A stretch of 64,000 nt of DNA from Psammoneis japonica (Eukaryota). Of this stretch, positions 1 to 37,460 are shown piece by piece. The stretch spans positions 1 through 64,000 of the forward strand of contig QPGO01000016.1 of the NCBI GenBank assembly GCA_008632985.1, in the 5' to 3' direction. Numbering within the stretch: position 1 is the first letter of the stretch; every line of letters starts with the position of its first letter. The translations under genes were made by a program, and so were the position numbers. The notes under the pieces are model-generated. The model made no database searches and had not been told where the DNA came from. It worked only from the letters and a program-made list of their open reading frames with translations.

Positions 1-1
1 C

Positions 2-793
2 AGCAAATCCAAACCCCAACGCCAAGTTCAACAGAGACAGAGAGAGCAGACAGCATCAATCGAGGCTGCAAAACGGAAAGCTTCGGAACAGCGCGACGAA
101 ATGTTCAAAGTCTGGCATCAACAACAACAAGGGAAAACAATTGGTGAGAGCTTTTCTTTTCAGGATTTTTTGCAATTGAAAGAGATGATTGAGAAACCAC
201 ATGTCGCCATGATTGATGGCTTCGAAGCAGAGGTGAACAGCAGTGGTGCAAACGCCATCAGTGTCGCAATGCGCACAACAATGTCGAACGTGCTCACCGG
301 TTTCAAGCGAAAGGATGCGGTTGCCGGCGCAGCGGGTGCTTCCAAACAACCGCCCAAAAAGAAGAGACGTGGAGCCGTTGTCAAGACAGCACGAGGTGAG
401 AATGCAATTGTTGCTGTGCGCCGTACCAAGACAAGGATGATCGAGGTGGGCGAGGCAGAGCAAATGAAACTGAAGGCTGACATCGCCAAGCAATCGAAAG
501 CGCTCGACAAGTTTGATGCACTTCGCTCCAGTGCGCCTCAGTACGGTGAGTGCGAGACGTTGAAGGGAGATGAGCTGAAGATCTTGATTCGGCTGGTTTG
601 TCCAAACGCCGGTTTGTTAGGGAAGAGCATTGAAGTAAAGAAGAAGGAGCTTAAAGAGCGGAAAATTACAAAAGAACATCTCGACTCTATTTACGTTCAG
701 AAAAGGCGCGATCTCGATGACCTCAAATCAAAGCTTCAGAACTCTTCGGCTGATAGTGATTCTGACGACGAAGACCAAGAAGAATTGCTTTAA
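2..793 (+). CDS. 5'-truncated ORF, Lys-rich coiled-coil with acidic tail; probably the C-terminal part of a DNA transposon protein
   Basis: Frame is open from the window start to TAA at 791-793. Has an NLS-like PPKKKRR and a DSDSDDEDQEE tail, and is followed by a terminal-repeat-like palindrome at 954-987. No TpA in 1-423. Confidence 0.45.
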   Translation, partial: SKSKPQRQVQQRQREQTASIEAAKRKASEQRDEMFKVWHQQQQGKTIGESFSFQDFLQLKEMIEKPHVAMIDGFEAEVNSSGANAISVAMRTTMSNVLTGFKRKDAVAGAAGASKQPPKKKRRGAVVKTARGENAIVAVRRTKTRMIEVGEAEQMKLKADIAKQSKALDKFDALRSSAPQYGECETLKGDELKILIRLVCPNAGLLGKSIEVKKKELKERKITKEHLDSIYVQKRRDLDDLKSKLQNSSADSDSDDEDQEELL

Positions 794-953
794 ATGTATA
801 ATCGTCTACATCATCTAGACACTTTGTATGAATTTTCATGAACGGTTGTGATGAGAACCAAATTTCGTTAACTTTTTGTGAGGAGAAATGTGTCAAGTGA
901 TTTTTGATAAACGACCTCGCAACGAAAGAATGTTGCACTTATGGAAGAGACGT

Positions 954-987
954 CCGTTACGTAACGGCTATTTTCTTATCGTAACGG
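954..987. repeat. 14-bp perfect palindrome CCGTTACGTAACGG plus a repeated half-site (CGTAACGG); possible transposon terminus
   Basis: Palindrome at 954-967, second CGTAACGG at 980-987. Confidence 0.5.
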
Positions 988-1338
988 TTGATTGTGCGGT
1001 GCCAGCTGTCTGCTCAACCCACTTGTACCAAGCCACGTAGAAAAATCGCGTAGCGGAAATCCAGTGGATGATAATTCTGTAGAAAGCTACGATGCCTGGT
1101 ATGATAAAAGGAGAATTGGGTCGAGTGATCATCAATCTATTTTATACCAGAGCCTACGTGATTCTACGCCTGACGTCATAATCACTTCAGAGATGGGAAT
1201 CCCCTAGCAGTTCAAGTTGGATTCTTCTGCTTTCTTTTGTCCGAAAACCACCCGTCTGTGCGCAGTGCGCTTTCGCACCCTGACGTCATCCTCATTTTTC
1301 TTGCTCACTTTTTTGGTTGGCGCTCCGTCCATTTCACC

Positions 1339-2142
1339 ATGAGACGCCTTCTCACGTTTCTTGTTGTGCTGACTGTGACACGCGTTGTTCACTCCTTTTG
1401 TCCGAATAACAATGGAGACCCACGAATTGCTTTCACAAAGTCGCGGCTTGAAGCTATTCCGGATGGAACCACCGCTGCCCCAATCGTTTCCGAGGCTTTG
1501 GAAGCCTCGCGGACGTCCTTTTTCATTTGGTTTTTTGGTGCTTCCGGTGCTGCTGGCATTGCCAGAAGCGCCTTTCCTCGCATGTACAAAAGTGTGGTGG
1601 AGATTCAAGAGCTGAAAGATGTCGGACCGACTCTGGGAGGAGAGACGCTTGGATTGAGTCCGATCTGTGGCTATCCGCAAGATTTGTGTCGAGCCGATGT
1701 GGAACAGGTGGCCAACAACCGCATGACAGTGTCACAAATTGTGGCCAAATACCCAGTCGAGGGAAACTTTTTATCGAGCAAAGGCTACCTCACGTTCCCG
1801 GCGTTTGCCCAAGCCAACGAAAAGGCCAATCCGCTCGCTGTGCGTGCCGTTTTTGATTCCTTTGCACAAAGCACCGACGCGGTCAACCCTGATGTAGCAC
1901 AAGACAAGCTTGATTCTTACAAGGAAAATGTGGAGAGTCTAAAACCGATACTTGTAAAGTCCAAGTTGGTTGGTATTGCGGCTATTGTAACGCTGTTGTT
2001 TCTGTTGGGATTGGCAGACATTGTGGCCTTTGGTCACGCATATGACGGTTGGTTTCCCGAGTGGCCGGGTGGTCGCAATTTTCCAGCTTGCATGATTGAT
2101 CCAGAGACTGGTCCATGGACAATACCAAAATATTGGATCTAA
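1339..2142 (+). CDS. Plastid-targeted membrane protein of unknown function
   Basis: Signal peptide MRRLLTFLVVLTVTRVVHS followed by F (ASAF-like cleavage). Two hydrophobic segments; intact ORF. Confidence 0.75.
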   Translation: MRRLLTFLVVLTVTRVVHSFCPNNNGDPRIAFTKSRLEAIPDGTTAAPIVSEALEASRTSFFIWFFGASGAAGIARSAFPRMYKSVVEIQELKDVGPTLGGETLGLSPICGYPQDLCRADVEQVANNRMTVSQIVAKYPVEGNFLSSKGYLTFPAFAQANEKANPLAVRAVFDSFAQSTDAVNPDVAQDKLDSYKENVESLKPILVKSKLVGIAAIVTLLFLLGLADIVAFGHAYDGWFPEWPGGRNFPACMIDPETGPWTIPKYWI

Positions 2143-2202
2143 ATGAAGTAAATTTATAAACTGCTAGTCGCATTTAGCGTCGTCGACCGCAGTCCGAGTG
2201 TG

Positions 2203-3405
2203 TCAAATCATCATGGAGGCAACGGTGAACCCCGTCCCGCCTACAATCAACGCACCCGCTCCACCCACCGCAAATGGACGCCATCCGACACCCTTGAGAG
2301 ATGATGCCGATGTTGATAGACCAACACCCGCCATGGCTGTTCCCAATGCATACTTGGACAAGTCGTTTCCGATGAAATTCATTGCATCATGATACGTAGC
2401 AGCATCCGATCCCAAAAAGTAATAGTCGCCGCATGATCGAAAGGTGGACATTCCCACAAAGGCCACCAAAAAGGTTGGAACGTATTTTTGAAAAGTAGCA
2501 AGTCCTGATATCGTCTCTTGGCTCTTTGACGACTCGTCAGCGTTCTTATCCACACTGACTCCTTTTCGATGGACATACGTGAGAGCCGGTATCGCAAAGG
2601 CGAGTCCCAGATTACGAGTCAGTTTTGTGACTGCCGCCACCTTTAAGGCTACTTCATCATCAAAGGTTTCATAATACGACATTGCCGAGCCCAGCACTTG
2701 CGATGTGTCGTGAATGGCCACTCCCAAGCACATGCCGACTTGTTCGGAAGCTCCTCCACACAATTCGTGAAACAAGTACGGATACAACAACATGCCAAAC
2801 GTTCCAAACGCAACCGTATTGGCAACCGCAACCGCTGTGTCTCGAGGAGACGCCTTTATAGCTGGTGTCAAGGCTGTAATGGCCGTGACACCACAAATGG
2901 ATGTCCCTGCCGTCAGCAAGAGGCTCATTTCTCTGGGAAGACCGGCATACTTTCCCAACGCTGGAATGACAACTAGACCCGCACCAACACTGGCCAGCAC
3001 TACGGGAATACCATTTGATCCTGTTGTAAGCAGTTCCACAAAACTGAGCTTGGCAGCGACAGCGACGATCCCTCCTTGTAATATCGATTTTGTCGAAAAC
3101 GTAATGCCCTTTTGGAAACTGTCCGGGTATCCTGTGCTGTTTCGAATCGTCATGCCGAGGAGAATAGAGAGCGGAATACCAGAAACGGGAACACCGAGTG
3201 AAGCACTCAATATAGATGCTGCTTGAAAGCCTGCTAGAGACGTTGTAGCCGAAAGTGCAACCCCAGGAAGAATCGAGGCGCTCTTGGCTTGCTCATTTTT
3301 TGTTGAGAAGAAACAAACATCCGGCAGAGCAGTTGAGGTGCAAACTGAATGCAATCTTTTCCTCCAGATAAATGATAGGCACGGTTGATGCGTCAGTAAT
3401 CTCAT
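2203..3405 (-). CDS. YeiH/UPF0324 putative sulfate exporter family membrane protein
   Basis: Motifs LLTAGTSICGVTAITA, GVAIHDTSQV, VTKLTRN and TAMAGVGL; about 10 TM segments; N-terminal extension. Confidence 0.88.
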   Translation of the reverse strand: MRLLTHQPCLSFIWRKRLHSVCTSTALPDVCFFSTKNEQAKSASILPGVALSATTSLAGFQAASILSASLGVPVSGIPLSILLGMTIRNSTGYPDSFQKGITFSTKSILQGGIVAVAAKLSFVELLTTGSNGIPVVLASVGAGLVVIPALGKYAGLPREMSLLLTAGTSICGVTAITALTPAIKASPRDTAVAVANTVAFGTFGMLLYPYLFHELCGGASEQVGMCLGVAIHDTSQVLGSAMSYYETFDDEVALKVAAVTKLTRNLGLAFAIPALTYVHRKGVSVDKNADESSKSQETISGLATFQKYVPTFLVAFVGMSTFRSCGDYYFLGSDAATYHDAMNFIGNDLSKYALGTAMAGVGLSTSASSLKGVGWRPFAVGGAGALIVGGTGFTVASMMI

Positions 3406-3920
3406 AATGATGATGATTGATGAAAGCAAATCACGAAATGCACCCGTTTACCCCGCCCATCATGCCCAGTGATAATGTTCGGGGATTCTCGATGAGTCAG
3501 TCCAGTCGCGTGAGTCGATTTCAGCATGGCTGCATAACATACCGTAGATTAAAAATTTGTATAATTTCAATGAAGAATGATTTACTATCAGAAAGGTGAA
3601 CGATTCACATGAAATGTAACTAATGGCAGAGTCGTGAAACAGCTACTATGTTAAATGACAAAGAAAGCTTCTCTTTATAATCTCCTAGACATATTAGACG
3701 TACTTACGGAATACAAACTGCAATATATGTAGAATAATAAATGTCGGAGTTGCACAGAATCGCTGATCGCCGGTAACGAGCGGTTACTTCGCCAGAAAGC
3801 ATCCGTCGCCAAGTAGTCGTATTTCGTATTTCTCGTCACAAAACATGAGACGAAACTAACCACACAAAATCTCAATCAGACCCATCATAACAGGCCATCG
3901 AGAACAAGATTTTTAAAAGT

Positions 3921-4661
3921 ATGATTTCTTTCTTACGCTGGATGATTCCCGTTGCGGTGCTAGGCATGTTGCACTCGCATTTGCCTGGATCGGTGGTTAC
4001 TGCGACCAGTCATGGCAATCGGTATGTACCTGCCAATTACAGCTCACTGCTCTGCCATCTTCCATCACAAATTTTGACTGACTTGCGTTTCGTCCCTTAC
4101 TTAATCAATCTTGTTCATTGTTTAGTCGAATGAGAAACTTGAGTGCTGTCAACATGGATCGTGAGTTGTCCTCTAGAGCTCCTAATCGCGAGTTGTCCTC
4201 TATGGGGGCTCCTTATCGTGAGTTGTCTTCTCGAGCTCCTTATCGCGAGTTGTCCTCTAGGGCTCCTAATCGCAAGTTGTCCTCTAGGGCTCCTAATCGC
4301 GAGTTGGAATCTTCGAGAGCACCTGGACGGTAAGTGCTCTTCGTGTTCAAATTACAGCGCAATGTTCTGTATACTCGTACTTTCACAACACATTGTTTCT
4401 GACTTGAATTCGGCCGTCAATCAATTTTGTTCATGTTTTAGTCGTAAGAGAAACTTGGCTGAGGTCAACAAGGGTCGCGAGTTGTATGCTTCGTCCAGGG
4501 CGCCCCGGCGGTGAGTTACAAATTCGAAACACAGCGTGAGCCCGCTGTTTTGTCTTGTTGTCCTATCACATTATAAACTCACACGGTCATAATATCATCT
4601 CTATTTTAATCAATACAGCCGGATGAGGAGGAGGAGGAATTTGAACGCCATCAATCATTAG
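3921..4661 (+). CDS. Secreted RXL-motif polyprotein (about 139 aa) with SSRAP[N/Y] peptide repeats; 4 exons
   Basis: Exons 3921-4021, 4126-4329, 4442-4510 and 4619-4661, all introns GT-AG phase 2. Spliced product: signal peptide, then RNL, REL/RKL x6, RNL, REL, RNL; ends NAINH*. Confidence 0.8.
4160..4324 (+). repeat. Coding tandem repeat, 27-30 bp unit x6 (RELSSRAPN)
   Basis: cgYgagttgtcctctagRgctcctWat units are directly visible. Confidence 0.95.
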
Positions 4662-4968
4662 AGTTTCCGCGTCACTACGAGTTGAGTTGTTCTCATACAA
4701 AGAGTACAACGCAAGACTAGAACGATACATCGACCGCACTGTCCTCACTTTGAAAGCGGGAAACAGTGCATGAGATTAGCAGTAGAACATTATTCGTAAC
4801 GATTTTAGAAAAAGACATTAACATCTGAAGAAACAATCAACACTAACGTGTTTGATGCCGTTCAAAATGATTGTCTCCCGTGTTGGTTTTTGTCTCTTAC
4901 TGTATGCAGTCACAGGCTTATAGACTGGACTTGTTGTCGGTCGTAATGTCATCTCAATGTCAATGCAG

Positions 4969-5023
4969 CCGGAGGAGGAGGAATGGGGAGAGGAGGAGGA
5001 GCTTGAATGCCATCAATCACTAG
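4969..5023 (+). pseudogene. Duplicated terminal exon of the RXL gene (RRRRNGERRRSLNAINH*); alternative or relic exon
   Basis: Homologous to 4619-4661, including the upstream intron end and 3' UTR, with an AG acceptor at 4967-4968. Confidence 0.7.
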
Positions 5024-5082
5024 AGCTCCCATGTCACAACGAAGAGAGTTGTTCTCACACACAAAGATCGTTGCCCCAGATA

Positions 5083-7709
5083 CTCTCTCCCAGCCGGGAG
5101 TGTCTCGTGCATTGGCGCCATTTGTTGCCACGCCATTCTGTGCTGTCTTGTGGATGCACCTCCCACCTTTCTTTGTTGTTTTGACTGCAGCCAGGCCTGT
5201 CTTGCCACACCTCGCAAATGGTGCCTTTTCATGAGGATCACATCCTCAGAGTTGTGGTCTGAGTTGCCATCAAGCTCACCGTGTGCACCAAAACTGGCAT
5301 GGCTTTTCCTCTCTGGTCCATCTGCTGCTCTTTTCCTCCTTGTTGGCCACATTGGGTCCTCTTTCACTTTCTTGTGGCTCATGGTTGTTGTGCTCCTCTC
5401 AGCATGTCCAATTTTTCTCCTTGGTTGTGTGCGGCACTCAGCTTCACATGTGGCCATCATTGTGTGCACCACGTTCTTGCACCGTCGGGAGTTGCCAGCT
5501 CTGTCTGACCAATGCTGGCCTCATTCACATGTGTTCACACCTGAAAGGTTCAGTGTCAAAGTGAAATTTTGCAACATGCTTTGGAGTTTTGCTGATTTTT
5601 CTGTGAATGCATGCCATCGCGACAACGAGTGCGTGGGGGAGATTCAAACTTGGATTTTGTTGTCATCATCAAGCAAAATGTGAGCACAGAAGTTGGGTGG
5701 GGCTGTGTTTGCAGAACTGATGTGACATTGGCCCTGCCTTGCATTCACTTCCCAAGCAACTTCACATGCTGGTCTGGCAGGATGGGAAACACCACGGAGC
5801 TGCAGAGGCACCCCCAAAGAGATGCCACAATGTGACAAAAATTGAAAACTCTCCACTCCCAACCCCATCTGTGCACAGTGAAATGGGAGCCAATTGCTTG
5901 GCACTGGTGATTCCAAGCATGGTCCTGCATCCCAATTGCTTCACCTGCTGGCAACCATTTTCATCATGGCAACATCACGAGTCTGTGTGTGGTTGTGGAC
6001 ATTGCATGTGCACCAGGCCATCTCCATGTGTTGCATCAACAGACTGGAGATTCTTCCACTGTGCCATGTGGTCATTGGAGTGCAGACAGCCAAGGCAGTG
6101 GCAGGACATTTGTTGGATGATTTGTGCAATGTGCAACTTGAACAACAGATCTCTGTTGGCTCTTGTGCAGTCACAGGCTTCCACAAATTTGACAGGGCCA
6201 GCCTCAAACACAATTGCCACTAAAAATGGTTTTCTCCTGCTTTGGCAGCTGGCACATTTGTGGTGGTGGCAGTCCCATGCTTCCAAATGTTGAAGATTTG
6301 ACTGGGCCACCCTCAGCAATCTTCCTTTCACCATGCATGGCTTCCACTGTGTGGCATGTTCCATGTGTCACATTCATCAAGAAGCACATTGGCGCCAATT
6401 TCTCATTCTTTTGCAGCACTTTTGATGGCTTTGGGTGCCATTTTGAGGCTCCTGCCATGCACAAGGCAGTGGCTTTTCAACTCACATTGTCGTGATCCTT
6501 GCCATGCCATCTGTGAACAACAAAGAAAACAATGATCAAACAAGCCACATTTCTTTGTCCCCACAAGGTTGACAATGCAACCTTGACCACCTGCTCAAGA
6601 ACACTGCCAACAAGGACCCCAACATGAGCTTTTTTGGACAAAGCTCCTCCTCCCAACAGAGTGCACACAGTTGGAAATCATCAACACAGAACACAGCAGT
6701 CAAGGTGCTTCAAGCAAAGTTTTTTGTTCCACAGCACTGGCTGCAATGGACAGAATGCCTCCTCTCATCATGCCAAGTTGCAGCCTGGTTGCAGCCACTC
6801 AAAAAGCAAACATTCTTTCTGGCGCTCTTTGTGGTGGCACTCTTTGTGCAGTTTTGAAGGGCACCAAATGTTGACAGAAGGTGGTGCTCATGTGTTGCCT
6901 TCAGCCAATGCAATCCAGGAAACCAAGAACTCCAGTTGAAGTTTTTTCCATGGCATGAGCTGCATTGGACAGAATGCTGCTTCTCACAGCACCAAATTGC
7001 AACCTGGCCACTGCTGTCAAAAAGGGAACACGACATGCCAAATGTCAACAGAAGACAGTTCCTGCCCTTTGTGATGACAATCTGGCAGCTCTCAATCTTT
7101 TGCTTTTTCCACATTGTCTGGCCACTCCATGCAGTTTGGATCTGAGGCTTGTGCGCATCTGATGCGACATTTTCTTGCACCCCATGTGCACCTGACAACA
7201 CAGCTTTGAAACTCAAGAGGGGACATTTTTCTCCAAACACAAACATTTGCTGCACACACCAGAGAACCTGCCAAATTGCATGGCTCAGGAACCCCGCCAC
7301 CCCAGGCTGGCTCTGGCACATGCTGTCCTTGCCCTGTCCACTTCAAGAAAAGAGAGATGTCAGTCAGAAAGCTCTGCCAGGCCACCAGGAAGAGAGAGAC
7401 AGTGGCTCTGTGCTTGCACGTCAGCTCAGAAAACCAAAATCTCCAACCAGAGTTTGTTTGACAACTGGCAAAATCATGTTGAGAATGGCATGGCCAGTGC
7501 TGCAGCTGCTGGTGCCAAGCGCTCGGACCAACCCTCTCAAAGCAGCGGCACAAGCTGCACCCCATGCTCCTGGTGCATGGCCGGCCACAGACCAAAGAGA
7601 AGGGGCACCACCACTCTCTCAGGTGTGGTCACTGTGAGAGGCATCTCATGATGATTCAGAGCAAAGCACGTCATGACAGTGCAGGCTGTTCATGAGCCAT
7701 TGCGGCGAT
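5083..7709. mobile_element. TpA/CpG-depleted island 1; decayed element, possibly PIF/Harbinger-like on the minus strand
   Basis: One TpA (6221) and about 30 CpG in about 2.6 kb. Minus-strand remnants WPDNVEKAK (about 7100-7125) and GVLGFLDCIG (about 6905-6935) resemble the DDE_Tnp_4 first-Asp region. The composition is certain; the family call is weak. Confidence 0.55.
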
Positions 7710-7841
7710 TAACGGTTGACGGTTTGTGCCTTTCGCCCTTGCTGCCGCTCTTGTTTAGCCCACTCGAGTCGCTCGAACAACACCGAATGATCGGGTTCCA
7801 CGCGCGATCACCAATTTCTTTTTCTGCATTTCACTATCGAA

Positions 7842-7870
7842 AGTACAGTTTTGGATGACAAAACTGCACT
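7842..7870. repeat. Hairpin, 12-bp stem and 5-nt loop, at the right edge of island 1
   Basis: AGTACAGTTTTG-GATGA-CAAAACTGCACT; the single stem mismatch is TA versus CA. Confidence 0.75.
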
Positions 7871-8101
7871 GTTAATCGCCGAAGTGATCGTGAAAACGTT
7901 TGACTGTCTTCTCTACAGAACTTGTCAAATGTCGTACTGTATATTAGATATTATGATCTACATAGTATATTTATTAAGAATCATATTTTTCATGTAATAT
8001 GGTATTGAATACTAATTAGTCATTTCTTTCCTGTATGTATCTATATATACAATATTAAATTCTGGACATTCCTCAGGTACAGAGAATGACTCCGCTTTTT
8101 T

Positions 8102-8164
8102 TTTGGCGGTCGCCTCGCCACAAAATGCCCGTCGCCAAAAACGCAAAAAACCTCGGCCGCCAAA
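8102..8164. promoter_or_regulatory. Inverted pair of E2F-consensus-like sites (TTTGGCGG) upstream of the second RXL gene
   Basis: TTTGGCGG at 8102-8109 and CCGCCAAA at 8157-8164, about 65-130 bp before ATG 8230. Confidence 0.3.
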
Positions 8165-8229
8165 CTTCGTCGCCTCACAATTTTGCAAAGCACGGGGCAA
8201 CAACAACACACAGCACTCGAACTTTTACC

Positions 8230-10337
8230 ATGTTTTTGTTACGCTGGATTGCTCCCATTGTGGTGCTAGTCTTGATGCGTCCTGGAACGATGGTTGCTGC
8301 GGCGGGCGGCAAGATCAAGGGAGCGAAACCGGACGACGTCAACAAGAATCATCGTCAATTGACGGATGGTTTGATCGACAAAATACTTTGCCATTTTGGA
8401 CATTCAACGTGCAAGACGAAGAAATCCAAGAGATCCAAGAAGAAGAAGAAGTCCAAGAAGAAGAAGAAGAAGAGCAAAGGCAAGTACGGGGAAGAAGAAA
8501 TGTACGACTCTCTTCCCGATGCCCCTCCAATGTCGGGCGAGGAGCTTGTGGCCTTCATGCACGAATTGATGGGCAGCCTTGGTGCTGAACACGAAGGCCT
8601 CTCCCCTGGTGCCAGCGAACCTCCTCCAACGCAAGACGAGATTACGGCCATGATGGAAGAATTGATGGCCAACATTAGTGCTGAACTCGAAAGCTTCGAA
8701 CCTCCATCGTCGGGCGAAGAGCTTATGGCCATGTTGAGCGAATTGTTGTCTGGTATTCCTGAGGATGTTAGTCTTCCCGATGATCTTCCGGATGATCTTC
8801 CCGATGATCTTTCGACTCGTCCACCTTCGACCCGAGCTCCATCGAGCAGAGCTCCATCGAGCAGAGCTCCGTCTCCCGAAGGTCGACGGTGAGTAGTTGT
8901 GTTTTCTCACAATATCTATATCTACAATGCAACGTGACGCGTTCTTTTTGTTGTTTCTCGACGTGCGACTCTCACGCATCGGTGGTTTTCATTTTTTTAT
9001 TATTTTGTACAGCCGCATGAGGAAGAGAAAGTTGGCTCTTCCCAATTCCCCTCCCATGTCGGGCGAGGAGCTGCTCAGACGCATGAGAAAGAGGAAGTTG
9101 TCCGATTCTTATCCAACGTCGGGCGATGAGCTTATGGCCTTGATGAACGAATTGATGGGCAGCCTTGGTACTGAACTCGAAAGCCTCTCCCCTGGTGGTG
9201 CCCCCTTGGATGACATTGAAGCTGCTGTTCCTGCAATGTCGCCCGAGGAGATTACGGCCATGTTGGAAGAAATGATGGCCAGCATTGAAGCTGTTCCGGA
9301 AATGTCGCCCGAGGAGATGACGGCCATGGTGCACGAATTGATGGCCAGCATTGGTGCTGAAGTCGAAGGTTTCGAACCTCCAACGTCAGGCGAGGAGCTT
9401 ATGGCCATGTTGAGTGGATTGTTGTCTGGTACTCCGAGGAACCTAGTCTTCCCGATGATCTTCCCGATTCTTCGACTCGTCCGCCTTCCTCCAGAGCTCC
9501 GACGCCCGACGGTCAACGGTGAGTAGTTGTTGTGTTTTCTCACAATATCTACAATGCAATGCGACGTGTTCTTTTTGTTGTTTCTCGACGTGCGACTCTC
9601 ACGCATCGGTGGTTTTCACTTTTTTTATTATTTTGTACAGCCGCATGAGGAAGAGAAAGTTGGCTCTTCCCAATTCCCCTCCCATGTCGGGCGAGGAGCT
9701 GCTCAGACGCATGAGAAAGAGGAAGTTGTCCGATTCTTATCCAACGTCGGGCGATGAGCTTATGGCCTTGATGAACGAATTGATGGGCAGCCTTGGTACT
9801 GAACTCGAAGGCCTCTCCCCTGGTGGTGCCCCCTTGGATGACATTGAAGCTGCTGTTCCTGCAATGTCGCCCGAGGAGATTACGGCCATGTTGGAAGAAA
9901 TGATGGCCAGCATTGAAGCTGTTCCGGAAATGTCGCCCGAGGAGATGACGGCCATGGTGCACGAATTGATGGCCAGCATTGGTGCTGAAGTCGAAGGTTT
10001 CGAACCTCCAACGTCAGGCGAGGAGCTTATGGCCATGTTGAGTGGATTGTTGTCTGGTACTCCCGAGGAAGCTAGTCTTCCCGATGATCTTCCCGACGAC
10101 GATGATGATGCTATTTCGACTCGTCCGCCTTCCTCCCGAGCTCCATCTTCCAGAGCTCCGACGCCCGACGGTCAACGGTGAGTAGTTGTTGTGTTTTCTC
10201 ACAATATCTACAATGCAATGCGACGTGTTCTTTTTGTTCTTTGTCGACTTGGAACTCTCACGCATTGGTGGTTTTCAATTATTATTTGTACACACAGCCG
10301 CATGAGGAAGAGGAACTTGGATGCCATTCAAAACTAG
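8230..10337 (+). CDS. Secreted RXL protein with a poly-Lys/Ser cluster and three Met/Glu-rich acidic modules (silaffin-like biosilica protein candidate); 4 exons
   Basis: Exons 8230-8888, 9013-9518 (1-bp deletion near 9434), 9641-10177 and 10298-10337, all phase-2 GT-AG introns. Signal peptide, RQL, KTKKSKRSKKKKKSKKKKKKSKGK, RRMRKRKL sites and SSRAP repeats. Confidence 0.78.
8889..10297 (+). repeat. Tandem intron+exon duplication, about 630-660 bp unit
   Basis: 9013-9430 is nearly identical to 9641-10058, and the three introns are homologous. Confidence 0.95.
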
Positions 10338-10897
10338 TAGGCGTCTGCTCACACGAGTGGTAGTAGTAGTAGTATTTTTTAGAAGAGAAAGGATCGATTG
10401 CTCGACCATGTTTATTTGAAAAGGAGGGCGAGTGCAAGAGTTTTGTTTACAGAGTTTTTTACGACCACGTCGTCGTAGATGTTATAATTATAAGAGATTA
10501 TTGTTGTTATTTCGAGAAAAATAGTCATCATTGTGCTTTCGTTTGTAAATATATAAACCTATACAAGACTTGATGGGGCCCCCTAATGATTGTTGCATTT
10601 CAACAGGATACAATGGTGCTGTCATTATTAGTTGCTCTCGAAGCTCCTACTTCGTACCCTCGAAGTCGTCTCGTTTCTGGCAAAAAGTGAGCGTGAAGAT
10701 CTTGGCGAAAAGTAAGCGAACATGAATTTATCTACAGACACAAATAAATGTATACGTGGTGAAATCTTTGCGATCTTTTGGTGTCACGTAGAAGCCCCGT
10801 ACGATTCTACGTTCGAATCCGGGATTGTCGCCAGCGACATCATCAACGCACATTCATCACGCACTTTCATTTTTCTGGGGCTTGTTTACATGGGCCA

Positions 10898-13800
10898 ATG
10901 ACAACCGACATTGAAATGGCAAGCGGGGAACACACTCCGTTGCTAGCATCGTCTTCTCAACAACAACATGATGACTCGTTTCGTCAGCAAGTTTATGATT
11001 TTCTCGAAGCCAAAACAAAACGAGGTCGTGCATATGAAGCCTTTACGTTTGTGCTCATTGTAGTGAATGTGTTGGCCTTTATTTGTGGCACGCTCTTTGT
11101 CGAGCAGTACAATGACGCTCCGTGGGCCTCACGTAAGCATGGTATTTGTGGTAATGTCTGTGATGCATTGTGGTTTGGAAATTATCCCGACAATGGTTTG
11201 GGCTTTTTGAAATTGGGAACCACGAGTCTTCTCGAGATTGTTACCGTTTTCATCTTTTCCGTCGATTATCTATGTCGCGTATGGTGTGCCGATTTGGAAG
11301 ATGCACGCTTTCAAGGTTTCTGGGGACGTATCCGGTACTTGCCCACCTTTTACAGCATTGTGGATTTGGCGAGTACAGTGCCCTTTTATATCGATGCCTT
11401 TGTGTTGAAGGAGTCCGATATATTTGCGTCGCAGTTTTTGCGTATGTTTCGTGTCTTTCGCATGATGCGGGTGGAGGGACGCTACGATACAGCCCTCACC
11501 ATGTTTGATGATGTCTATCGTGAACAAAAGGGTATTTTGGGAACGGCACTCTTTGTGGGATTCACCACGTGGACTACCGTGAGTGCGCTGTATTACATTG
11601 TGGAACGCAGATCACTCGACATGATTTATTGTGGAGCGGCTCCGGAGTATTGTGGTGATGCGGATGAGATTGATACGCAACTGTGTGTCATTGATTCGTG
11701 GGGTATTACGGATTGCAGTGCGGCGGGTTGTCCGCCTTCAGACGAGTATCCCGAGCCCTGCTACAATTTGTTCAATTCCATTCCCATGGCATCCTACTAT
11801 GCGCTCTTGAATCTATTTGGGGAATTCCCACTCATTGAACAGCATTCGGCGCCGGTAAAGTGGTGGGGACCTTGACGGCCGTTGTGGCGGTAGCCGTCTT
11901 TGCGCTTCCTGCTGGTATTATTGGCAATGGCTTTGAAGATTTGATTGCACGCAAACGGCAAGAACGGCAAGAGTTGGACGATGAGACTTCCCTGGAAGAA
12001 GATGAATCACCCTTGACGCTTGGATTCTATGCAGATGACGGAACGAAACGGGGACGTCTTTACAACTTTTTACACGCTCAAGTCTCGTATGGATCGGGAT
12101 TCTTTGATCATTTCATCAATGTTCTCGTTTTGGGTACCGCGATTAGTTTCATGATTGACACGGTTGCGGGGATTTCGCCCTTGACACATGTCTGGCTCGA
12201 CTTGTTTGAACTTGGTGCCGTCATGGTCTTTACTGTCGAGTACAGTCTTCGCGTCTACAGTGCCAAGGAAGATCCAAAGTATCAAGGCCCCTACGGACGT
12301 TTCAAGTACATGTGTTCCTTTCTAGCCGTTGTGGATTTGCTTTCGGTGGCACCCTATTGGATTGAGTTTCTCCTGACGAGAAGCGTCGTCACGTCGACGT
12401 CGGATTCCTCGTCTACGTGGAGTACCTTTGTCAAGTGCCTTCGGTTGCTTCGATTGTTGCGGTTTGAAAAGTACACGCACGCCTTTACTTCGTTTGATGA
12501 AGTCATTCGAAGCAACTTGGACGTGGTTGGCCGTGACGGCATTTACGGCAATCTTGTTTTGGGTCTTTTTCGGTGCCATCTTGTACTTGACAGAGCGCAA
12601 CAATCCCGATTCCGAAATGGCGGAGAATTACAACACGGTCCCCAACAGCATGTGGTTGACGCTGTTGAATTTGTCGGGAGAATCACCCCTGTCGCAGTAC
12701 AGTGGATACGGAAAGTTCATTACGGGATTTCTAGGGTTGTGTGCCACGGGTGTGTTTGGTATTCCCATTGGTGTGCTTGGAGCGGGATTTGAAGAGATTG
12801 TCGAGGATGAAAACGAAGACGACGAGGATGAATTGGAACACGAGGACGGCTTGTGGGATTCCGAAGGAAGGGGTGGCACTTCTTTGAGAATTCGTGCTAT
12901 AACTTTGTCAATGGCATTGGATCCAAGGCAGCCATGATTTTTGAGCTGTCCATTTATGCTCTTATTTTTGCAACCGTCGCGGTGGGTGTCTGGCAGACGG
13001 TGGAGGGTCACGAAGAAGACTTTCATGCGGTCGAGTGGTTTGCCGTGGTTGTGTTTACCTTTGAGTACATTATTCGTTTCATTGGTGTGCCGGCGGATCC
13101 ACAGTTTAACTACATTCAGAACAACTTCCTGGCGCGCATCCGTTTCATCTTTTCCTTTTACTCCATTATTGATTTGCTGGCCATTTTGCCCTTTTATTTG
13201 GCAGTCGCAATGCCCAATTCATGGGTCGATCAACATGACGAGTACCTTCGAATGCTTCGTCTTTGCGTCTCGTCAAGCTTGATAAGTACGTTCCATCCAT
13301 TTCTCTGGTGGACGATGTGCTTCGTCTCAAGCGAAACAGTTTGGCTGTTGCTTGTTTTGCGGCCGCGACCCTGTGGATTCTCTTTGCTTCCATGATGTAT
13401 CTTTTCGAGCACAAAGACGACTACAACTCGATTGACAACGTGCCCGAATATGGATGCGATACGAATTGTACCATGGCGGATCGATTCCAGGATTACTTTG
13501 ACAGCATGACGTATACGGGTGTGCACTTGACGGGCGATTATCCCATTATTACATACTCGTGGCCGGCAAGGTTTTTGAATTTCTTCATGGTGATTGCCGC
13601 AGTCGGTGTCGTTTCCGTGCCTTCAGGTTTAGTGGCGAGTGGATTTACTAGTATCTGCCAAAGCAAGGCTCAGCGTCGACGTGGTGAACGGCCACGAGGC
13701 CGAGCAGGCGACGATTGGTACGAGTTTCGCCTTGCCGAGTTGGATGGAGTCGATCCTCCGCCGTCTCGTTTTGGACCACAAGTGGATCGGTGGCAGGTGG

Positions 13801-14714: not shown

Positions 14715-15040
14715 GTCAAAGTATGCTAACTATGACCTCCACTGTTTTTTCTGTAACATTGAGAGGAAATGAATACATGTAACCTTTCGCTTCAAACACT
14801 TTGAATCTCAGCCACGTAAGCAATACGTCTTTTTCATTCTGTAGTCTTCTTTTCGCTTTTGTTTTCAAATGAGATGTTCGCCGGTGGCCCGAACCACGGC
14901 TAATAACCACAAGGGGAGAACGATAGCCGTACAGTATGAGCACAGTTACCCTTCATTTTCATCCACAGCATCGAGAAGAGAGCAGGGGAGGCAGCGATGG
15001 CTTGCTGACATTACAGCGCTTCCTTCGTTTACCGCCACAC

Positions 15041-18000: not shown

Positions 18001-18129
18001 TGAGCATACCAGCTTGGTATGCAGGGCAGTGAAGCAAAAGACACCAAAGAAAACGAAAAGCCCCATCTCTAAAGGCTTCACCGCTATCCTTTGTCTCTTG
18101 GGTCGCCATACTGCAGTTGGCGACGCCAT
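15041..18129 (-). CDS. XRN-family 5'-3' exoribonuclease-like protein with a putative bipartite plastid presequence; one intron and several frameshifts
   Basis: Motifs GIKGFRVWF, LDVNQLLH, AMDGPPSAAKL, ITPGTEFM, VPGEGEVKL, GGDSDLVL and GNDYLPKL. Alternative start at 18066. Confidence 0.85.
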
Positions 18130-24945: not shown

Positions 24946-25056
24946 GTTGCTGCTGCTCTCTTTTTTGAAAAAAAGACGACGTTAGAGTTTATTGCGTCGG
25001 CTTGTTGCGCTCATCTTCATCATTGCGACCGCGTGATGATGTACCGGTACTGTGTA

Positions 25057-25980
25057 TGAATGAACACTCTTTGTTTTCCGCCCGTTTGTCGTCCGGCTCG
25101 AAATTTTTGTCGTGCGTGCATGGGACAGCACCGGTGACATGCAGGGTCAATCAATGTTTGCTTTGTCCAGTTGCTCCAACAGCATCCTCTCCTGAAAATG
25201 CCCAAGTTGGAGCCATGCCCTCTGGGCTTCGTGCTTCCTTGGTGTGCTGGCATGCAGCGCCGCGAGGGGTGCTGCACGGTGTCTCACTGTGTTGCTCAGT
25301 GGATGTGCGCCGCAGCATGCTCACCATTTGTTGCAGAATGTTCAAGCGAGCACAGCCAGAAGTGCCCTCAAATTGGAGTGTGCATGAGAATGGCAGCCAA
25401 TGTTTTGCAAGCTGGCGTGCTCAATGCCAACCCTCCTGAAAACCTTCAAAAGTTGTGTGAGATTGAGGACAACACCTTGGCTGCAGCTTCCTGTGCCCCA
25501 CACTCCTCTTGGCTGCTGGTTTTTAAGATCCTCTGCAGGGGCCTCTTTGGGTGCTTTTGTTTTGCACCAGCCATGGTGTGGTCATTTCTGAACCCCTCCC
25601 AACACCGCCGGCAGCAGATTTGGCTGTGCAGCTCAAGCCAGCACACCAAGCATTGATGGGTGAGAACTTTGATGGCAGAGTGTAAAATGACAATCCTTTG
25701 CCTGCCAAGTTGGACAGGGTGCTCTGACCAAGTTGTCCCCATTGATCCCGGGAAGAAGCTGGAGGCTCGAGTGGCTGACGCACCCATTTGGAACAGAGCA
25801 AGCACCACATGCTGGTGGGATTGTCTCAGATTTGCGGGCACCACGAGCAATTGAACAGATCAATGTTTGCCAAGTGATGCCATTTTGGAGCTGCAGATTT
25901 TCTTCCCAACACCTGCGTTTCCCTCATTGCTCCTGGTTTGATTTGAATTTGTTTGGCCAGGCCAGCCAGCGCTGCTGCAG
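25057..25980. mobile_element. TpA/CpG-depleted island 2; decayed repeat of unknown family
   Basis: Only 2 TpA (25524, 25683) in about 920 bp. CpG is kept at the edges and reduced in the centre. Confidence 0.5.
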
Positions 25981-26173
25981 AGTAGAGCAGCGAGCAGAGC
26001 GAGCTGTCCACAGGTCAAGGAAGCACATGCGACCATGTCTGAATCAAGCGCGGCGGCCCCAACTATCTCCCGCCAACTCGTCGTCAAGGGATGACGGATG
26101 ACCGCGATCAGCGATGAGTGAAATGCGACGCTGACAATGATTTTAAAGCTCAGTCGAAGCATAAAACGATGCC

Positions 26174-32290: not shown

Positions 32291-32388
32291 GAAAGTCTTA
32301 GTCGAGCGAGTCAAAGTGCAGTCGAATGGGTCAAATGCGTTTTTGTTTTTGTTTTTGTGCGACGATGAGGGAGGGGCTTAGCACTTTA

Positions 32389-35300
32389 CTGTTCGTCCAC
32401 TGTGCTTCCGCATCAGTCGACAACAGCTGGGGATCTGCAATTGGCAATTTGTCGAAGAACAGGCTCAAGGTGGTGCAGGTGCAAAAGTGGGCCAGATTCC
32501 ATGCAAATGGAAACTTGGTGTGTTTTCCACACAAATTGCCAAAGCCACCTCGCCAACTTGAACCCTCTCCTCCCGGATGATGGAAACCTGAACATTTCAA
32601 ATGACAGAGTGTCCAGACTGCTCAATTGCACTCTCCTTGACATGTTTCCATGCATTTTTGGAGACATGCGCCAAATCCAATCAGAAAGGTGCCAAAATTG
32701 CGACGCTCGAGTTTGTCAGAGCTGTGGCAAATGACGGTGTTGCCCATGTGCTCAAATGCTGTCACGCCAGCTGGAGATGTTCAATGTCGAGAGTCCAAAG
32801 CCAAAGCACAAAGCACAGCTTGCAAAGCAATCTGTTGCTGACACTGCACTGGTGACAACAACAACAAGCACAAGCCACACCAGCGGCACTGGGTTGAAGA
32901 CAAACATGCATGTTGACTGAAGCTGCGAACTGCAGAGCTCACACATGGAATTCTGCAGGCAAATGTCACAAAAAGTCCCGCCTGGGGCTGGAGCACATCA
33001 TCTGCACTCTGCATTTGTGACAGAGCTGGGCAAAAACTTGAGATGCTGTGAACAGCAACATCTGAGCTTGTTCACTCAAAACAATCAACAATCAACTTGA
33101 CAGCGATTGCTGCTCAGTGCTGCTGGCACCCCTTCTGCCACAGCATCGCAAAGCCAACTCGTGTTCCTTCTCCAGGAGAGCATCTTGTGAGAATGAGAAA
33201 AAGCTGGGCATGCCAGAGATTCAGCATGCTGTTCAACCATGTTCTGCAGAGGGGTCATGGGGTGGGGTGCCTTGTCTCCCAGCACTGCAGCTTTGATGCA
33301 GCACACATGGCACCACACACACAACACCATGCAGAGAGTGATTGTGGTTGTTGACAAAACCTCTGTGTTGCTGTGTGCGCCACCTTTTGAACAAAATCAC
33401 TCCCTCTGTGGTGCTGAAGCCATTGTGGGGTGGTGTGTCTTTTCAGCAGCCAGGTTTTCAAAGAATGTGCAAATGGGCAGTGCAGCATTTTCAGCTGCCC
33501 TGACTTGTCTCAAAGAAGAGGGTGCAGGGGTGCATTGCTCTCAAGCAAAAACAAGCACAGCAGCTGCTGTCTGCTGTGCATGCATGCACAACATCATGCA
33601 GCCAACAACCTGCACACATCACAGTGAGATGTCACGCCACATCAATGTCAGATCTTGTGTTGCAACACTGACACAGGTCCACAGCATCCTCAACTCAAGC
33701 AAGGCTGGTGGCCAGTGTGCCCATGCTGCAGCGGAACTTTGACCCAGCAAAAACCCAAACATTTGTGGCTGTGTCTTTTTTGTGACAAAGCATGCTGAGT
33801 GATGGCTCCTGACAGCCCATGGAGCACTTCAACGGCTGTCCCCTGTGGCCCATGCAGCTCTCTCTCTCCTTCAGGCTGTGCTCACGAGGTTGCACCTGCT
33901 GCAAACAACACACACTGAGCACTTTGTCTGTTCTCCCCACTGTGTGTTTGCACATGCCAGACAGCAGCACATGCCAACATGTTTGTGCCAGCCATCCACA
34001 TCAGTGCACCATGATGTGCCTCTGTGCACAGGACACATTGAGGCCATCACCATGGACAAAGCGCTTTGTCCAATCACAACAGACACAACATTGTGCAACT
34101 TTGAAACTTGATGACATTTTGTCAAGTGAGGTGTTCAAGCAAACCTTGGCTGGCCACCTTTGAAATGAAAGTTGGCCGGGCCAGCTTTGGAGTGAAAGTT
34201 GTCAGGCCTGGCTGACCAACTTTGGAGTGAAAGTCAGGCGAGCCAATGGATGAGAAAAGGAATCTCAGTGGCCTTGACCCAGGTTCAAGAAAAACACAAT
34301 TCTCTTTGTTTTTTTTTAACCTGAAATGCCTCAACAGAGCTTTCTGTGCAGGCACATGCTTGCTGACAAGCTCTGAGCAGCCAAAGAGCTTTGCCCCATG
34401 AGATGACAACAAAAGGCAACACCGCTGCCACTTGCTCAGTTGTCCATGATGACAATGTGGTCAACCAACCCCAACAATCAACAACAATGGAAAGATCTGG
34501 CATCTGCACATTGCACCATGAAGAGGCATTTTGTGATTGATTTCCAAGACAGCACTCAGGGCAAAATCGCTCATCAGGGTGGGCCAAAATGAACAGAAAG
34601 CTTTCTGTTGCTGCATTCTTTCACAGCAAACTCATGCTCACACTTGTTGATTTGGTTGCAACATGACCCTCTGAGAGACCAGAATGTGCTGCATCATGGT
34701 GAACCCCTCTTTTGGCTGTCGCGTTGCTTGCCCAAGCTTCATTTCCTGGCATTGAAGAAAAGCACATGGTTGAAATCATGCAGAAAAACAATTTTTGCTG
34801 GACTCAACAGGAAGAAACTTTGTCTTAGAATCACCCGCTGTTGCAACCATCCACATCATCAGAAAGCACTTTTTCTTTGGCTTTTCAGCCATGTGATTTT
34901 CTGAAAAAGTTGAAAAAAGTCAACAAACCTCCTTTTCTGATTCGCTGGTTCAGATCCAACTTCAAGACAGGACAAGCACCAGCTCCTTCCTCAGCCACTG
35001 CTTGTGTGTCTTCTTCATGGCATGTGTGTGGCATGGATGGTGTGACTCAGTTGTCAAGAGTCTTGTGGCTGATGTCCTTGCACAAAATGCACCTCATTGA
35101 ATTGTCAAACTCTTTCTGCTGCAATGACCCCCCATCATGGACAAACTGCTGCAGCTCTTGTCTTGGTGGCCTGCCCAGGCACTTTTCCCACTTGCTTGCC
35201 CTTCTCTTGGTCTTTGCACTCACTGCACAATGCGGGCAGATGACTGCAATTTAACTCATCTTGCTCAGCAAATTTGGCCTCTGGGTTTGACGAGCCCGCT

Positions 35301-37460
35301 GTTTCAACACAAGTCCAAATGACCAATGATGACTCACATCTGATGTTGAAGAAGCACGCTTGCAGCCTGCAAGAAACGGAGTCAAGAAATCTCAAACAAA
35401 AGCACCCCAGCTGCAGACAGCTCTTCTTCCTTTCCTCCTTCACCTTCTAAGACCCAGTGCTCAAAATGCGAAACTGTGAAAAAAGGCATGCTCATGAATG
35501 ACAACTTGTTGCACCTCTGCAAAGATGTCAACAAAGTCATCACAAACCTCTCAAAATGACAAAGATTGTGCATGATGGCAAAGACACTCAGCCTGTGGCA
35601 AGGGCACCACAGACTCCTCCCGCCATGGCACCCACCTGTGGATGCATCATCTGCAGATGCAGGGACAGCCAAAAACGCTCAAATTGTCAAATTGTGCAAG
35701 CACTGGATCTGGGGACATGCCATGCATTCAAAAACACACCCGGGGATTTGCAAGTGCAGCCCCACACACAGAGATTGGCGAGCACTCCTTGAGACATGAG
35801 GGAGCCTGCTGCATGATCAAGGAAGATTGCACCATCAAGCAGAAACTCCTTGATGGGTTGTCTCTGTCTTTGAGCACAGATGGCACATCATGGTGCTGGC
35901 TGCCAGCCATCTCTGCTTTGTGGCATTTGCTGACAGAGCTGAACAAGAAGTCAACACTGGTGTGTCTGAGCTCCACTCCAAACAGCGGCACATGCTTTTC
36001 CCCTGAAACAATGAAAAAACAACAAGTGGCTGCAAATGTTGGCTGCAACCACTGTGACCTCAATGTGTCCTGTGCACTGTGCACAGAGCAGGCACATGCT
36101 GTGCAAGGGCCAATGGCACAAACATGCTGGCGCGCGTCTGGCACGCACCAACACACATGCAGTGGGTGAAACAGACAATGTGTTCAGTGTGCATTTTGCA
36201 CACAGATGCAACCTCATAAGAAGAGCCATAGACTGCAAAGAGCAGATGATGTTGAAGTGTCCTGTGGACTGCCAGAAGCTGTCTCTCAGCACAACTTGCT
36301 GTGAAAAAGACATGGTCACAAATGTTTGAGTCTTTCAGTCAGAGTGCCTTTCCAGCATGAGCGCTGACCAACCTTGAGTCAAGGATGCTGCACACCTGCT
36401 GCTCCATTGCAACACAAGATTTTTCATCCCACTGTGTTGTGTGCCATCATTGTTGGCTCCATGTTTTGTGTGCATCATGCACAGCAGCTGCTGTTTTTGT
36501 TTTTGCTTCAGAGCAATCATGTGCCACCCCTCTCTTCTTTGAGACAAAACAAAGCAGCAGCCAGCAGCTGAAAATGTTGCACCACTTGTGCACATGTTTG
36601 AAACTAAGCTGCTCAAGAAACAGACCACACAAGGCTGCTGCGCCACAGGTGGAGGGTGACTTTGTTTGAAAGGCAGCACATGCAGCAATTTCGAGGAGGT
36701 TTTGTCAGAAATCACAGTTGCCAGACATGTTGTGTGTGGTGCCATGTGTGTCACATTAAAACCACAGTGCCAGGAAACAAGGCAACCTGCCACAAATTCC
36801 TTTGCAGAACATGTGTCAACAGTGCACTCTGAACCACTGTAATGTGCCCCGCTGCCAGCTTGTTTTGACCATGAGAAAGCAAAGTGCAGGTGCTCCTCAC
36901 CATGGACAAAGTGCTGCCAATCAAAACAAATGCAACACTGTGCAGCACTGTGCAGCTTTGAGACTTGATGACATTTTGTCAAGTGACATGTTGTCCACAC
37001 TTTTGTTTTGACAAAAAGCAAGCATTCTTCAAAAATGATTTTTTGTGCCATCCAAGGAACAGGGAAAGTTGCTTGGAAGGTTGGCGCAACAAGATGGCAA
37101 AAAACAAACACAGCAATGCTGTGTTTTGGTCAAAACTCAACAGCCACTTGATGTTTGTTGTTTGTCATCATCATTGCTGGAGCTTTGTCAATGGAATGCT
37201 TGGCGCTCTTTCCATGTTCAAGAGCGTCAGCCAAAAATTGGATCCACATCAAGGCCCTTGCAAAGCCAACACAGATCACTGCACCAGATTTGCTCAATTT
37301 CAAAGTCAACATCTTGATCATCAGTTTGAGTTCACATCTGCCAATTGCTTCAGACAATCGCCATGTGAGCAGGGTCTCAGGCATTTGTGCACCATGAACG
37401 TTGATGGCCCCACCTGTCTCAGAAAGGCTGTTGAAGAGCCAAGGACGGCAGGGCAAATTT
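32389..37460. mobile_element. TpA/CpG-depleted island 3; nested or rearranged decayed repeats
   Basis: About 8 TpA in about 5.07 kb; contains diverged internal inverted and direct duplications. Confidence 0.65.
33200..36990. repeat. Diverged inverted repeat (about 33200-34050 versus 36050-36850) plus direct repeat (34046-34130 versus 36897-36990)
   Basis: CACACATGGCACCACACACA and GTGCACAGGACACATTGAGG are shared in inverted orientation. ACTTGATGACATTTTGTCAAGTGA is identical in direct orientation. Confidence 0.8.

Follow-up and report, generated by a model that had tools for sequence, protein, structure and literature searches.

Results

Layout of the locus

We analysed the first 64,000 nucleotides of contig QPGO01000016.1 of the diatom Psammoneis japonica (GenBank assembly GCA_008632985.1, forward strand), and this whole stretch is referred to here as the window. 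The window begins inside a gene: positions 2..793 on the plus strand represent the 3' part of an open reading frame (ORF) encoding a member of an orphan protein family, with 263 open codons and a 5' end that lies beyond the window. Three further features, none of which has an assigned strand, occupy the same region. These are a tract at 1..423 that is free of TpA and normal in CpG, the left side of which is cut by the start of the window, a transition zone at 424..660 in which TpA returns at reduced density, and a multi-copy stretch at 1..1648 that was recognised by contig depth. Deeper in the window there are three islands, also without strand, that are almost devoid of TpA. Island 1 (5082..7709) has a single TpA in 2628 nt, island 2 (25056..25982) has two in 927 nt and island 3 (32388..37460) has nine in 5073 nt. 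Island 3 additionally contains a diverged inverted duplication, with a left arm at 33214..34046 (plus strand) and a right arm at 36055..36839 (minus strand).

A TpA-free tract with normal CpG

The preliminary description of this DNA had listed TpA at positions 424, 542, 618, 636 and 652 and had noted that CpG is plentiful in 1-423, both of which proved to be exact: the tract has 0 TpA and 26 CpG, and beyond position 652 the TpA positions of the first 900 bases continue with 667, 688, 692, 754, 791 and onward. The observed-to-expected (o/e) ratios in 1-423 were 0.00 for TA, 1.00 for CG, 1.52 for TG and 1.48 for CA, whereas those of the background, defined as the 54 kb of the window outside the islands, were 0.61, 1.01, 1.14 and 1.17, respectively. 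The gradual return of TpA that had been described after the tract is present but weak, with two TpA versus 7.0 expected in 424-617 and five versus 8.5 expected in the whole of the transition zone.

The TA-free state of 1-423 is real and highly non-random, and chance together with codon usage is insufficient to account for it. For comparison we used 16 ordinary ORFs of the window (21.5 kb in total), ten of which match a Pfam family with a score beyond the curated cut-off. They contain 30-41 TpA per kb, with TA-free runs that reach no more than 78-150 nt in the individual ORFs. TA-free runs of about 420 bp, which would have counted against the preliminary description had they been usual in ordinary coding DNA, are therefore not common in the coding DNA of this window. 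At the TpA density of the ordinary ORFs, a gap of at least 423 nt has a probability of 2.5e-7, or ~6e-4 across all 2369 TA gaps of the window. We also resampled synonymous codons, drawing them from the codon usage of the window while holding fixed the protein sequence of residues 1-141, which is already without tyrosine. A total of 11.4 +/- 2.8 TpA were expected for these residues (~11.5 in a second run) versus none observed, and none of 20,000 draws was without TpA.

The same resampling provided evidence of what had replaced the missing dinucleotides. There are 76 TG and CA in 1-423 versus 58.2 +/- 4.4 expected, a number that was reached in none of 5000 resamplings, whereas the 26 CpG compare with 29.1 expected. 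The excess of TG and CA (~18) is close to the deficit of TpA (~11-15), indicating that TpA was turned into TG or CA and is not merely absent. Loss of TpA in 1-423 by conversion to TpG and CpA is supported by these counts. Codon-phase counts of TG and CA in ORF 2..793 were too few for showing selection on the direction of conversion.

The ORF and its protein family

Pfam identified no family in ORF 2..793 and none common to the members of its family, and a homologue of near-equal length to its protein was not found. A HMMER search over 1.84 billion representatives recovered five remote homologues (best E 1.6e-7, 26% identity), all of them unnamed metagenome or transcriptome proteins encoded on short contigs, and their identity to the ORF protein (22-26%) is too distant for a comparison at the DNA level. 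Among metagenome contigs, a protein-pattern search for relatives of the ORF gave 390 pattern matches, 0 of which were confirmed, and a degenerate DNA pattern gave 0 matches. Conserved motifs of the family lie inside the TA-free part, and the window copy is thus still recognisably coding.

It had been suggested in the preliminary description that the histidines of the VWHQ and KPHV motifs could be former tyrosines. Alignment of the homologues agrees with this for KPHV, where the four covering homologues have F, F, F and Y opposite the histidine (codon CAT), a pattern consistent with a former TAT codon. The suggestion found no support for VWHQ, the three covering homologues having E, L and K opposite its histidine. 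Near VWHQ, three homologues have a conserved tyrosine (in 'EY'), and methionine occupies the aligned position in the window. A cDNA-like run covers positions 1-667, and the same run contains a spliced joint (16374->16453); no RNA data set was listed for positions 1-10000.

A multi-copy repeat whose copies differ at TpA sites

Other copies of the 5'-terminal repeat were seen through the contigs of a public sequencing run (X1) over positions 1-20000 of the window. The similarity of these contigs to the window over the whole 20 kb ranged from under 90% to over 99%, and the comparisons below draw on the 40 differences listed out of 258. Summed contig depth was 902 in 1-667, 1048 in 668-1334 and 375 in 1335-2001, versus a single-copy depth of ~56 (~55-60), and the depth of 1-1334 relative to single-copy depth therefore indicates a family of roughly 16 copies. 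The right end of the repeat at ~1620-1648 is approximate, there being a loose end at 1648 and a first single-copy contig that starts at 1619. Within the window, blastn and tblastn identified no second copy of 1-2200, the repeats inside 1-2500 were only short chance-like pairs, and Rfam had 0 matches.

The preliminary description had viewed the return of TpA as an approach to the end of the element at about 660. This proved incorrect, as the repeat depth remains high through 1334. Since conversion fades over 424-660 whereas the repeat runs to ~1.6 kb, the ends of the converted tract are not the ends of the element.

All three of the listed differences between contigs and window in 1-660 interconvert TA or CG with TG or CA. 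At position 344 the window has CA and the contigs CG; at 416 the window has TG and the contigs TA; and at 543 the window has TA and the contigs TG, a difference that exchanges Tyr for Cys in the protein. As 11 of 27 listed differences in ordinary DNA likewise interconvert these dinucleotides, the three of three in 1-660 are suggestive only. In addition, one X1 contig has 33 letters in place of 788-851. When these were aligned by eye to 788-820 there were eight differences, and four of the five TpA of the window (791, 797, 799 and 807; not 816) read CA or TG, including the stop codon of the ORF, TAA at 791, which reads CAA. The copies therefore differ in the reach of the converted tract.

Over 1-423 itself, the high-depth contigs had only two listed differences from the window, and the nearest copies seem to share both its TA-free state and the same choices of TG or CA. 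As the closest copies agree with the window at nearly all sites of this tract, the bulk of the conversion would be older than the latest rounds of copying, and conversion at that time fits a survivor that still multiplies as well as it fits an element caught early, as the preliminary description had it. The check proposed there, whether paralogs carry TA where this copy has TG or CA, came out in its favour among the listed differences, with TA in the sister copies at 416; at 543 the reverse holds, with TA in the window, and the nearest copies seem to be TA-free too.

Three islands without TpA

The islands have TA o/e ratios of 0.01-0.04 and TG and CA ratios of 1.7-2.0. Island 1 has o/e ratios of 0.19 for CG, 1.85 for TG and 1.92 for CA, with a G+C content of 0.50; the corresponding values are 0.40, 1.70, 1.74 and 0.53 for island 2 and 0.20, 2.04, 1.80 and 0.48 for island 3. 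Scored in 500-nt segments, the regions 5001-7500, 25001-26000 and 32501-37500 had TA o/e of at most 0.11 and TG+CA o/e of at least 1.64. The segment 1-500 had values of 0.04 and 1.48, which place it just under the second of the thresholds used to define clusters in Bigelowiella natans, where the preprint employed windows of 1 kb (Mettrop et al., bioRxiv 10.64898/2026.01.13.699255). The sequence of the islands is complex, with no simple repeat, and the G+C content of TA-depleted DNA is 0.49-0.50 versus 0.47 in the background.

Island 2 fills the gap between two divergently oriented ORFs, and its left 400 nt have CG o/e of 0.55-0.66. A part of island 1, at about 5137-6105, has further copies as judged by depth and loose ends. 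Island 1 is the same in the X1 contigs apart from 16 letters in 3247 nt, and TpA is not restored there, the run possibly being of the same sample as the assembly. Among the 39 ORFs of the islands, no Pfam family reached its curated cut-off (best E-values 0.03), and Pfam identified no viral or transposon domain, nor a reverse transcriptase domain, in these ORFs or in ORF 2..793.

Conversion on both strands and after duplication

In the island cores TG (o/e 1.94) and CA (o/e 1.83) are equally enriched, and a runs test detected no strand-coordinated tracts of TG or of CA in the islands (z -0.98 to +0.24). Equal enrichment and random interspersion of the two dinucleotides indicate that both strands were converted, site by site.

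Further evidence was obtained from the inverted duplication in island 3, whose arms aligned globally with 581 matches and 168 mismatches, 100 of the latter being transitions. Of the 55 dinucleotides in which both positions mismatch between the arms, 20 are CA in one arm versus TG in the other, whereas the next commonest type occurs three times. Such dominance of CA versus TG is expected if, after the duplication, the two arms underwent separate conversion of the same ancestral TA (or CG), and it speaks against an element that lacked TA from the start.

Loss of CpG is nested within loss of TpA

To relate the two losses, we scored 318 segments of 400 nt, 43 of which had TA o/e below 0.15. CG o/e was below 0.35 in 35 of these TA-poor segments, 0.35-0.7 in five and at least 0.7 in three, the last group starting at positions 1, 201 and 25001. 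None of the 318 segments had CG o/e below 0.35 together with TA o/e of at least 0.15. There is thus no loss of CpG by itself among them, and CpG loss is nested within TpA loss. Conversely, 1-423 is the sole place in the window with complete loss of TpA and no loss of CpG. The nesting, together with the near-expected CpG count of the tract, supports the proposal of the preliminary description that the loss of TpA can be separated from the decay of CpG. Its further proposal, that TpA is lost faster or over a wider reach than CpG, also finds support in the window and is in line with rates published for another organism.

The two dinucleotides also behave differently at the borders of the islands, where TpA ends abruptly and CpG declines gradually. 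CpG density was 25.0/kb at the island edges (first and last 400 nt), 8.8/kb in the cores and 55.7/kb in the background (binomial P = 5e-8). The edges had been described as keeping CpG while being without TpA, which is accurate as a matter of degree relative to the cores but not in the sense of CpG being intact, as comparison with the background demonstrates. The window presents three stages: TpA gone with CpG intact, CpG half gone at the island edges, and both gone in the cores. The preliminary description had concluded that the 5'-terminal element is younger. This is one reading of its CpG content and is unproven, since an unmethylated or expressed copy, or purifying selection on a gene in use, would also keep CpG.

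Discussion

A probable TpA-specific process acting on DNA

Our results are best accounted for, with a probability that we estimate at about two in three, by a reading in which positions 1-423 are the visible end of a tract that was fully converted at TpA by a DNA-level process, with CpG loss coming second and more slowly. The data directly show a TpA-specific A:T->G:C conversion on both strands of resident DNA that is repeated, complete in sharply bounded tracts and, in this copy at least, independent of CpG loss. In the proposed process a transition can strike either of the two base pairs of the palindromic TpA step. Its target here would be one copy of a diatom element of roughly 16 copies, in which the tract spans the 3' half of a gene whose reading frame remains open. 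The enzyme may be a host adenine deaminase acting on DNA, as has been proposed for Bigelowiella; a modification of thymine that mispairs with G would be an alternative chemistry. The signal for targeting would presumably be repetition or foreignness. Loss of CpG in the islands would have occurred later, likeliest through deamination of 5-methylcytosine in silenced repeats. This second process would have left 1-423 of the window copy untouched, and would be largely complete in the three TA-free islands, which we infer to be older than the tract.

Comparison with Bigelowiella natans

The phenomenon is already in print for a chlorarachniophyte, and the window extends it to another host lineage and to a target of a different kind. 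Of the 302 nuclear point mutations in mutation accumulation lines of B. natans, 231 lay in integrated giant-virus and virophage regions (Mettrop et al., bioRxiv 10.64898/2026.01.13.699255). A->G and T->C changes made up 230 of the 231 de novo mutations in these two viral regions, and every GC-biased one hit a TpA; hypermutation ran at ~6e-7 per site per generation, which is a thousandfold the background, and was confined to some of the lines (bioRxiv 10.64898/2026.01.13.699255). The same preprint reported 324 coding sequences that are almost without TpA (mean frequency 0.0018) and 124 genome-wide clusters of 1-kb windows poor in TpA and rich in CpA and TpG, and its authors proposed an ADAT2-like DNA adenine deaminase (bioRxiv 10.64898/2026.01.13.699255). 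In the full-text literature outside subscription journals, this 2026 preprint was the one report found of TpA-specific, G+C-increasing hypermutation of resident DNA, and none was found for diatoms.

There are considerable similarities between the two cases. In both, TpA is lost and TpG and CpA are gained on both strands, the affected regions are sharply bounded and of kilobase scale in an otherwise normal nuclear genome, and the affected ORFs often cannot be annotated. The cases differ in that the host here is a diatom (a stramenopile), whereas B. natans is a chlorarachniophyte (a rhizarian), and in that the target here is a cellular repeat of roughly 16 copies that carries an orphan gene and in which no viral gene is recognisable, whereas in B. 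natans it is NCLDV and virophage DNA. They differ also in the kind of evidence, as mutations were measured in B. natans and the window provides a footprint and differences between copies only. By analogy, the process in the window would probably be of the same kind as that in B. natans. At the B. natans rate, if it applied here, the supply of TpA would run out one to two orders of magnitude sooner than methylated CpG would decay, which is the order of loss seen in the window.

A further difference is the relation to CpG that is seen here, with co-loss in the old islands and no CpG loss in 1-423. The term 'CpG' has 0 occurrences in the main text of the B. natans preprint (bioRxiv 10.64898/2026.01.13.699255), and the relation between TpA loss and CpG loss is absent both from that text and from the other papers found.

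Comparison with other mutational systems

Repeat-induced point mutation (RIP), which is known from Neurospora and other fungi, creates TpA and lowers G+C. The state of the window resembles its outcome in several respects, in that transitions occur in a dinucleotide context, repeated DNA is affected in bounded tracts, and genes become unrecognisable. As in RIP, mutation followed duplication and struck both copies independently, as evidenced by the arms of island 3 (CA versus TG in 20 of 55). The direction of change is different, however, being A:T->G:C at TpA in the window, whereas RIP has been described as C:G->T:A, mostly at CpA (PMC2621366). Fungal-type RIP was rejected as a candidate, since TpA is erased here and not created, and the G+C content of the TA-depleted DNA is 0.49-0.50 versus 0.47 in the background. 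GC-biased gene conversion was also considered and rejected, as its effect would extend beyond TpA.

CpG decay of methylated transposons, by deamination of 5-methylcytosine, would account for the CpG->TpG/CpA part of the change in the old islands, where the loss is graded and slower. CpG decay explains no loss of TpA, however, and its mark is confined to the islands (CG o/e 0.19-0.40), the ratio in 1-423 being 1.00. A potential source of such decay in diatoms is indicated by PMC9998398, which links DNMT5a-dependent methylation to silencing of transposable elements and describes RID-related DNMT4 genes as common in diatoms. In animals, the host enzymes APOBEC3 (C->U) and ADAR (A->I in double-stranded RNA), which edit viruses and retroelements, also produce transitions that saturate in a preferred neighbour context. 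They differ in acting on single-stranded DNA or RNA and in leaving strand-asymmetric tracks, whereas both strands are equally affected here in resident chromosomal DNA.

Alternative explanations

Five alternative explanations were weighed. An ordinary gene whose chance history, amino-acid composition or codon usage happened to avoid TpA has in its favour that the stretch is coding and that background TpA is already low (o/e 0.61), but its probability is negligible given that none of the 20,000 resamplings was without TpA, that runs in ordinary ORFs reach 150 nt at most and that P is ~6e-4 window-wide. Long-read base-callers miscall methylated motifs, so that an artefact of sequencing or assembly, with modified bases read as TG or CA, had to be considered as well. 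It is highly improbable, as a separate public run, though possibly of the same sample as the assembly, reproduces island 1 without restoring TpA. Editing of RNA, in which an ADAR-like activity would convert A to I at UpA in the RNA of the element and retrotransposition would copy the change into DNA, would suit a multi-copy family and the preference of ADARs for U before the edited A (bioRxiv 10.64898/2026.01.13.699255, Discussion). We nevertheless judge it very unlikely: editing of one strand predicts TG on the sense strand only, whereas TG and CA are raised alike (1.52 and 1.48 in 1-423, 1.94 and 1.83 in the islands) and randomly interspersed, the island 3 arms changed in place after duplication, and Pfam found no reverse transcriptase in ORF 2..793 or the 39 island ORFs.

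Two further explanations concern the cause or scope of the loss. A single machinery could be responsible for both losses, the same enzyme system being fast at TpA and slow at CpG so that the two differ only in rate. This would be consistent with CpG loss occurring only inside TA-free DNA (0 of 318 segments otherwise) and within the same island boundaries, and with the reported ability of ADAT2-type deaminases to deaminate A as well as C in DNA (cited in bioRxiv 10.64898/2026.01.13.699255). It is quite improbable in view of the fact that 230 of the 231 mutations in the hypermutable regions of B. natans were A:T->G:C, that CpG loss is graded from the island edges whereas TpA loss is abrupt, and that DNA methylation which silences transposable elements, documented in a diatom (PMC9998398), is a known alternative cause. 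The other possibility is that the element or its RNA was selected against TpA, for example by a TpA-directed defence or by an RNase that cuts at UpA, such that TA-free coding is an inherited adaptive state of an active family. The TA-free state does appear to be common to the copies, with two listed differences in 1-423 in the high-depth contigs, the ORF is open and keeps the conserved motifs of the family, and a cDNA-like run extends over 1-667. Selection of this kind is nonetheless unlikely, since the same total loss is found in non-coding islands that have no gene to protect and the island 3 arms were converted independently after duplication. In addition, TpA/TpG differences of either direction persist among the copies, and the protein itself bears the marks of conversion, at the conserved aromatic position now occupied by the KPHV histidine and in the Tyr versus Cys difference at 543.

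Implications

Considered together with the findings in B. natans, the preferred reading of a TpA-specific process on DNA opens a broader one, which we hold only tentatively, at somewhat under even odds. TpA-specific DNA hypermutation would be a form of genome defence that is also present in diatoms and not a peculiarity of Bigelowiella, and would be either old within the SAR supergroup or repeatedly evolved. It would target repeated cellular elements as well as viruses, and would go to completion within tracts whose ends lie apart from the ends of the element. It would also be upstream of cytosine methylation and independent from it, so that a copy whose TA has been erased could stay coding, unmethylated and multiplying; potentially, a family without TpA has become immune.

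Diatoms being a major group among marine algae, the footprint of TpA hypermutation in one of them would establish the process as widespread. The locus also provides a setting for the question of what marks DNA for attack, since the sequence affected is present in many copies and carries an orphan gene instead of a recognisable virus, and since the tract comes to a stop within the repeat. The relation of the attack to cytosine methylation can be addressed in the same setting.

Conversion of TpA has predictable consequences for proteins, in which Tyr becomes His or Cys (Cys as at 543). It also has consequences for annotation: the islands are without TAA and TAG on either strand and therefore give rise to long false ORFs, which indicates that such islands should be masked in the annotation of diatom genes. 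Two other genes of the window were compared with named proteins, and neither gave a near-identical match, so that the proteome of this genome is not in the collection searched and the window is not B. natans DNA. The aspartate aminotransferase encoded at 52143-53249 has named best matches in diatoms at 64-68% identity (Phaeodactylum, Fistulifera, Nitzschia, Epithemia, Discostella and MMETSP diatoms), with the one exception of a ciliate transcriptome, and for the fucosyltransferase of the window Epithemia was the only organism-named match.

TpA- and CpG-poor islands and the background around them

Both TpA and CpG are nearly gone from three islands of the window, island 1 (5082–7709), island 2 (25056–25982) and island 3 (32388–37460), in which TG/CA is doubled and G+C is normal. 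Long spurious ORFs are numerous in all three, the longest of 264 codons, because TAA and TAG are missing from both strands. Island 2 occupies the whole gap (24981–26165) between two divergent ORFs, one to its left on the reverse strand (23707–24981) and a nucleoside-transporter ORF to its right on the forward strand (from 26165), and is therefore located at the expected promoter positions of both.

A partial signature was observed at 43001–43500, within WW-domain ORFs, with observed/expected ratios of 0.39 for TA, 0.46 for CG and 1.52 for TG+CA, which could be an effect of protein composition or a weak tract. The background of the window has a TA ratio of 0.61 and a TG/CA ratio of ~1.15. In ordinary genes too, the window and the contigs of a public sequencing run differ at TA/TG/CA steps, namely at 11053 (TG versus TA), 12234–12235 (TG versus CA, a double change) and 13283 (TA versus CA). 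A low-level leak of the TpA to TpG/CpA conversion process into normal DNA is possible.

Run contigs and copy number

Run X2, one of the public runs compared, is labelled 'DNA?' and behaves like cDNA, as one of its contigs leaves out 78 nt with CT..AC ends (joint 16374 to 16453), as if spliced, and its contig depths are uneven (11 to 330). Across the TpA-depleted start of the window (1–667), one X2 contig omits 186 nt, again with CT..AC ends (111 to 298), and X2 contigs part from the window sequence at 29/30; this skip and divergence may point to the border of an intron, to a copy with a deletion or to an antisense transcript.

Summed contig depth at 18677–20000 (179–250 versus ~56) suggests a further multi-copy stretch, in which TpA and CpG are normal and no Pfam family was found in the ORFs. 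Within the multi-copy stretch at the start of the window, downstream of ORF 2..793, the motif CCTGACGTCAT, which contains the palindrome TGACGTCA, occurs twice (1169–1187 and 1279–1297) at a spacing of 110 nt, and several contigs depart from the window sequence left of 1279.
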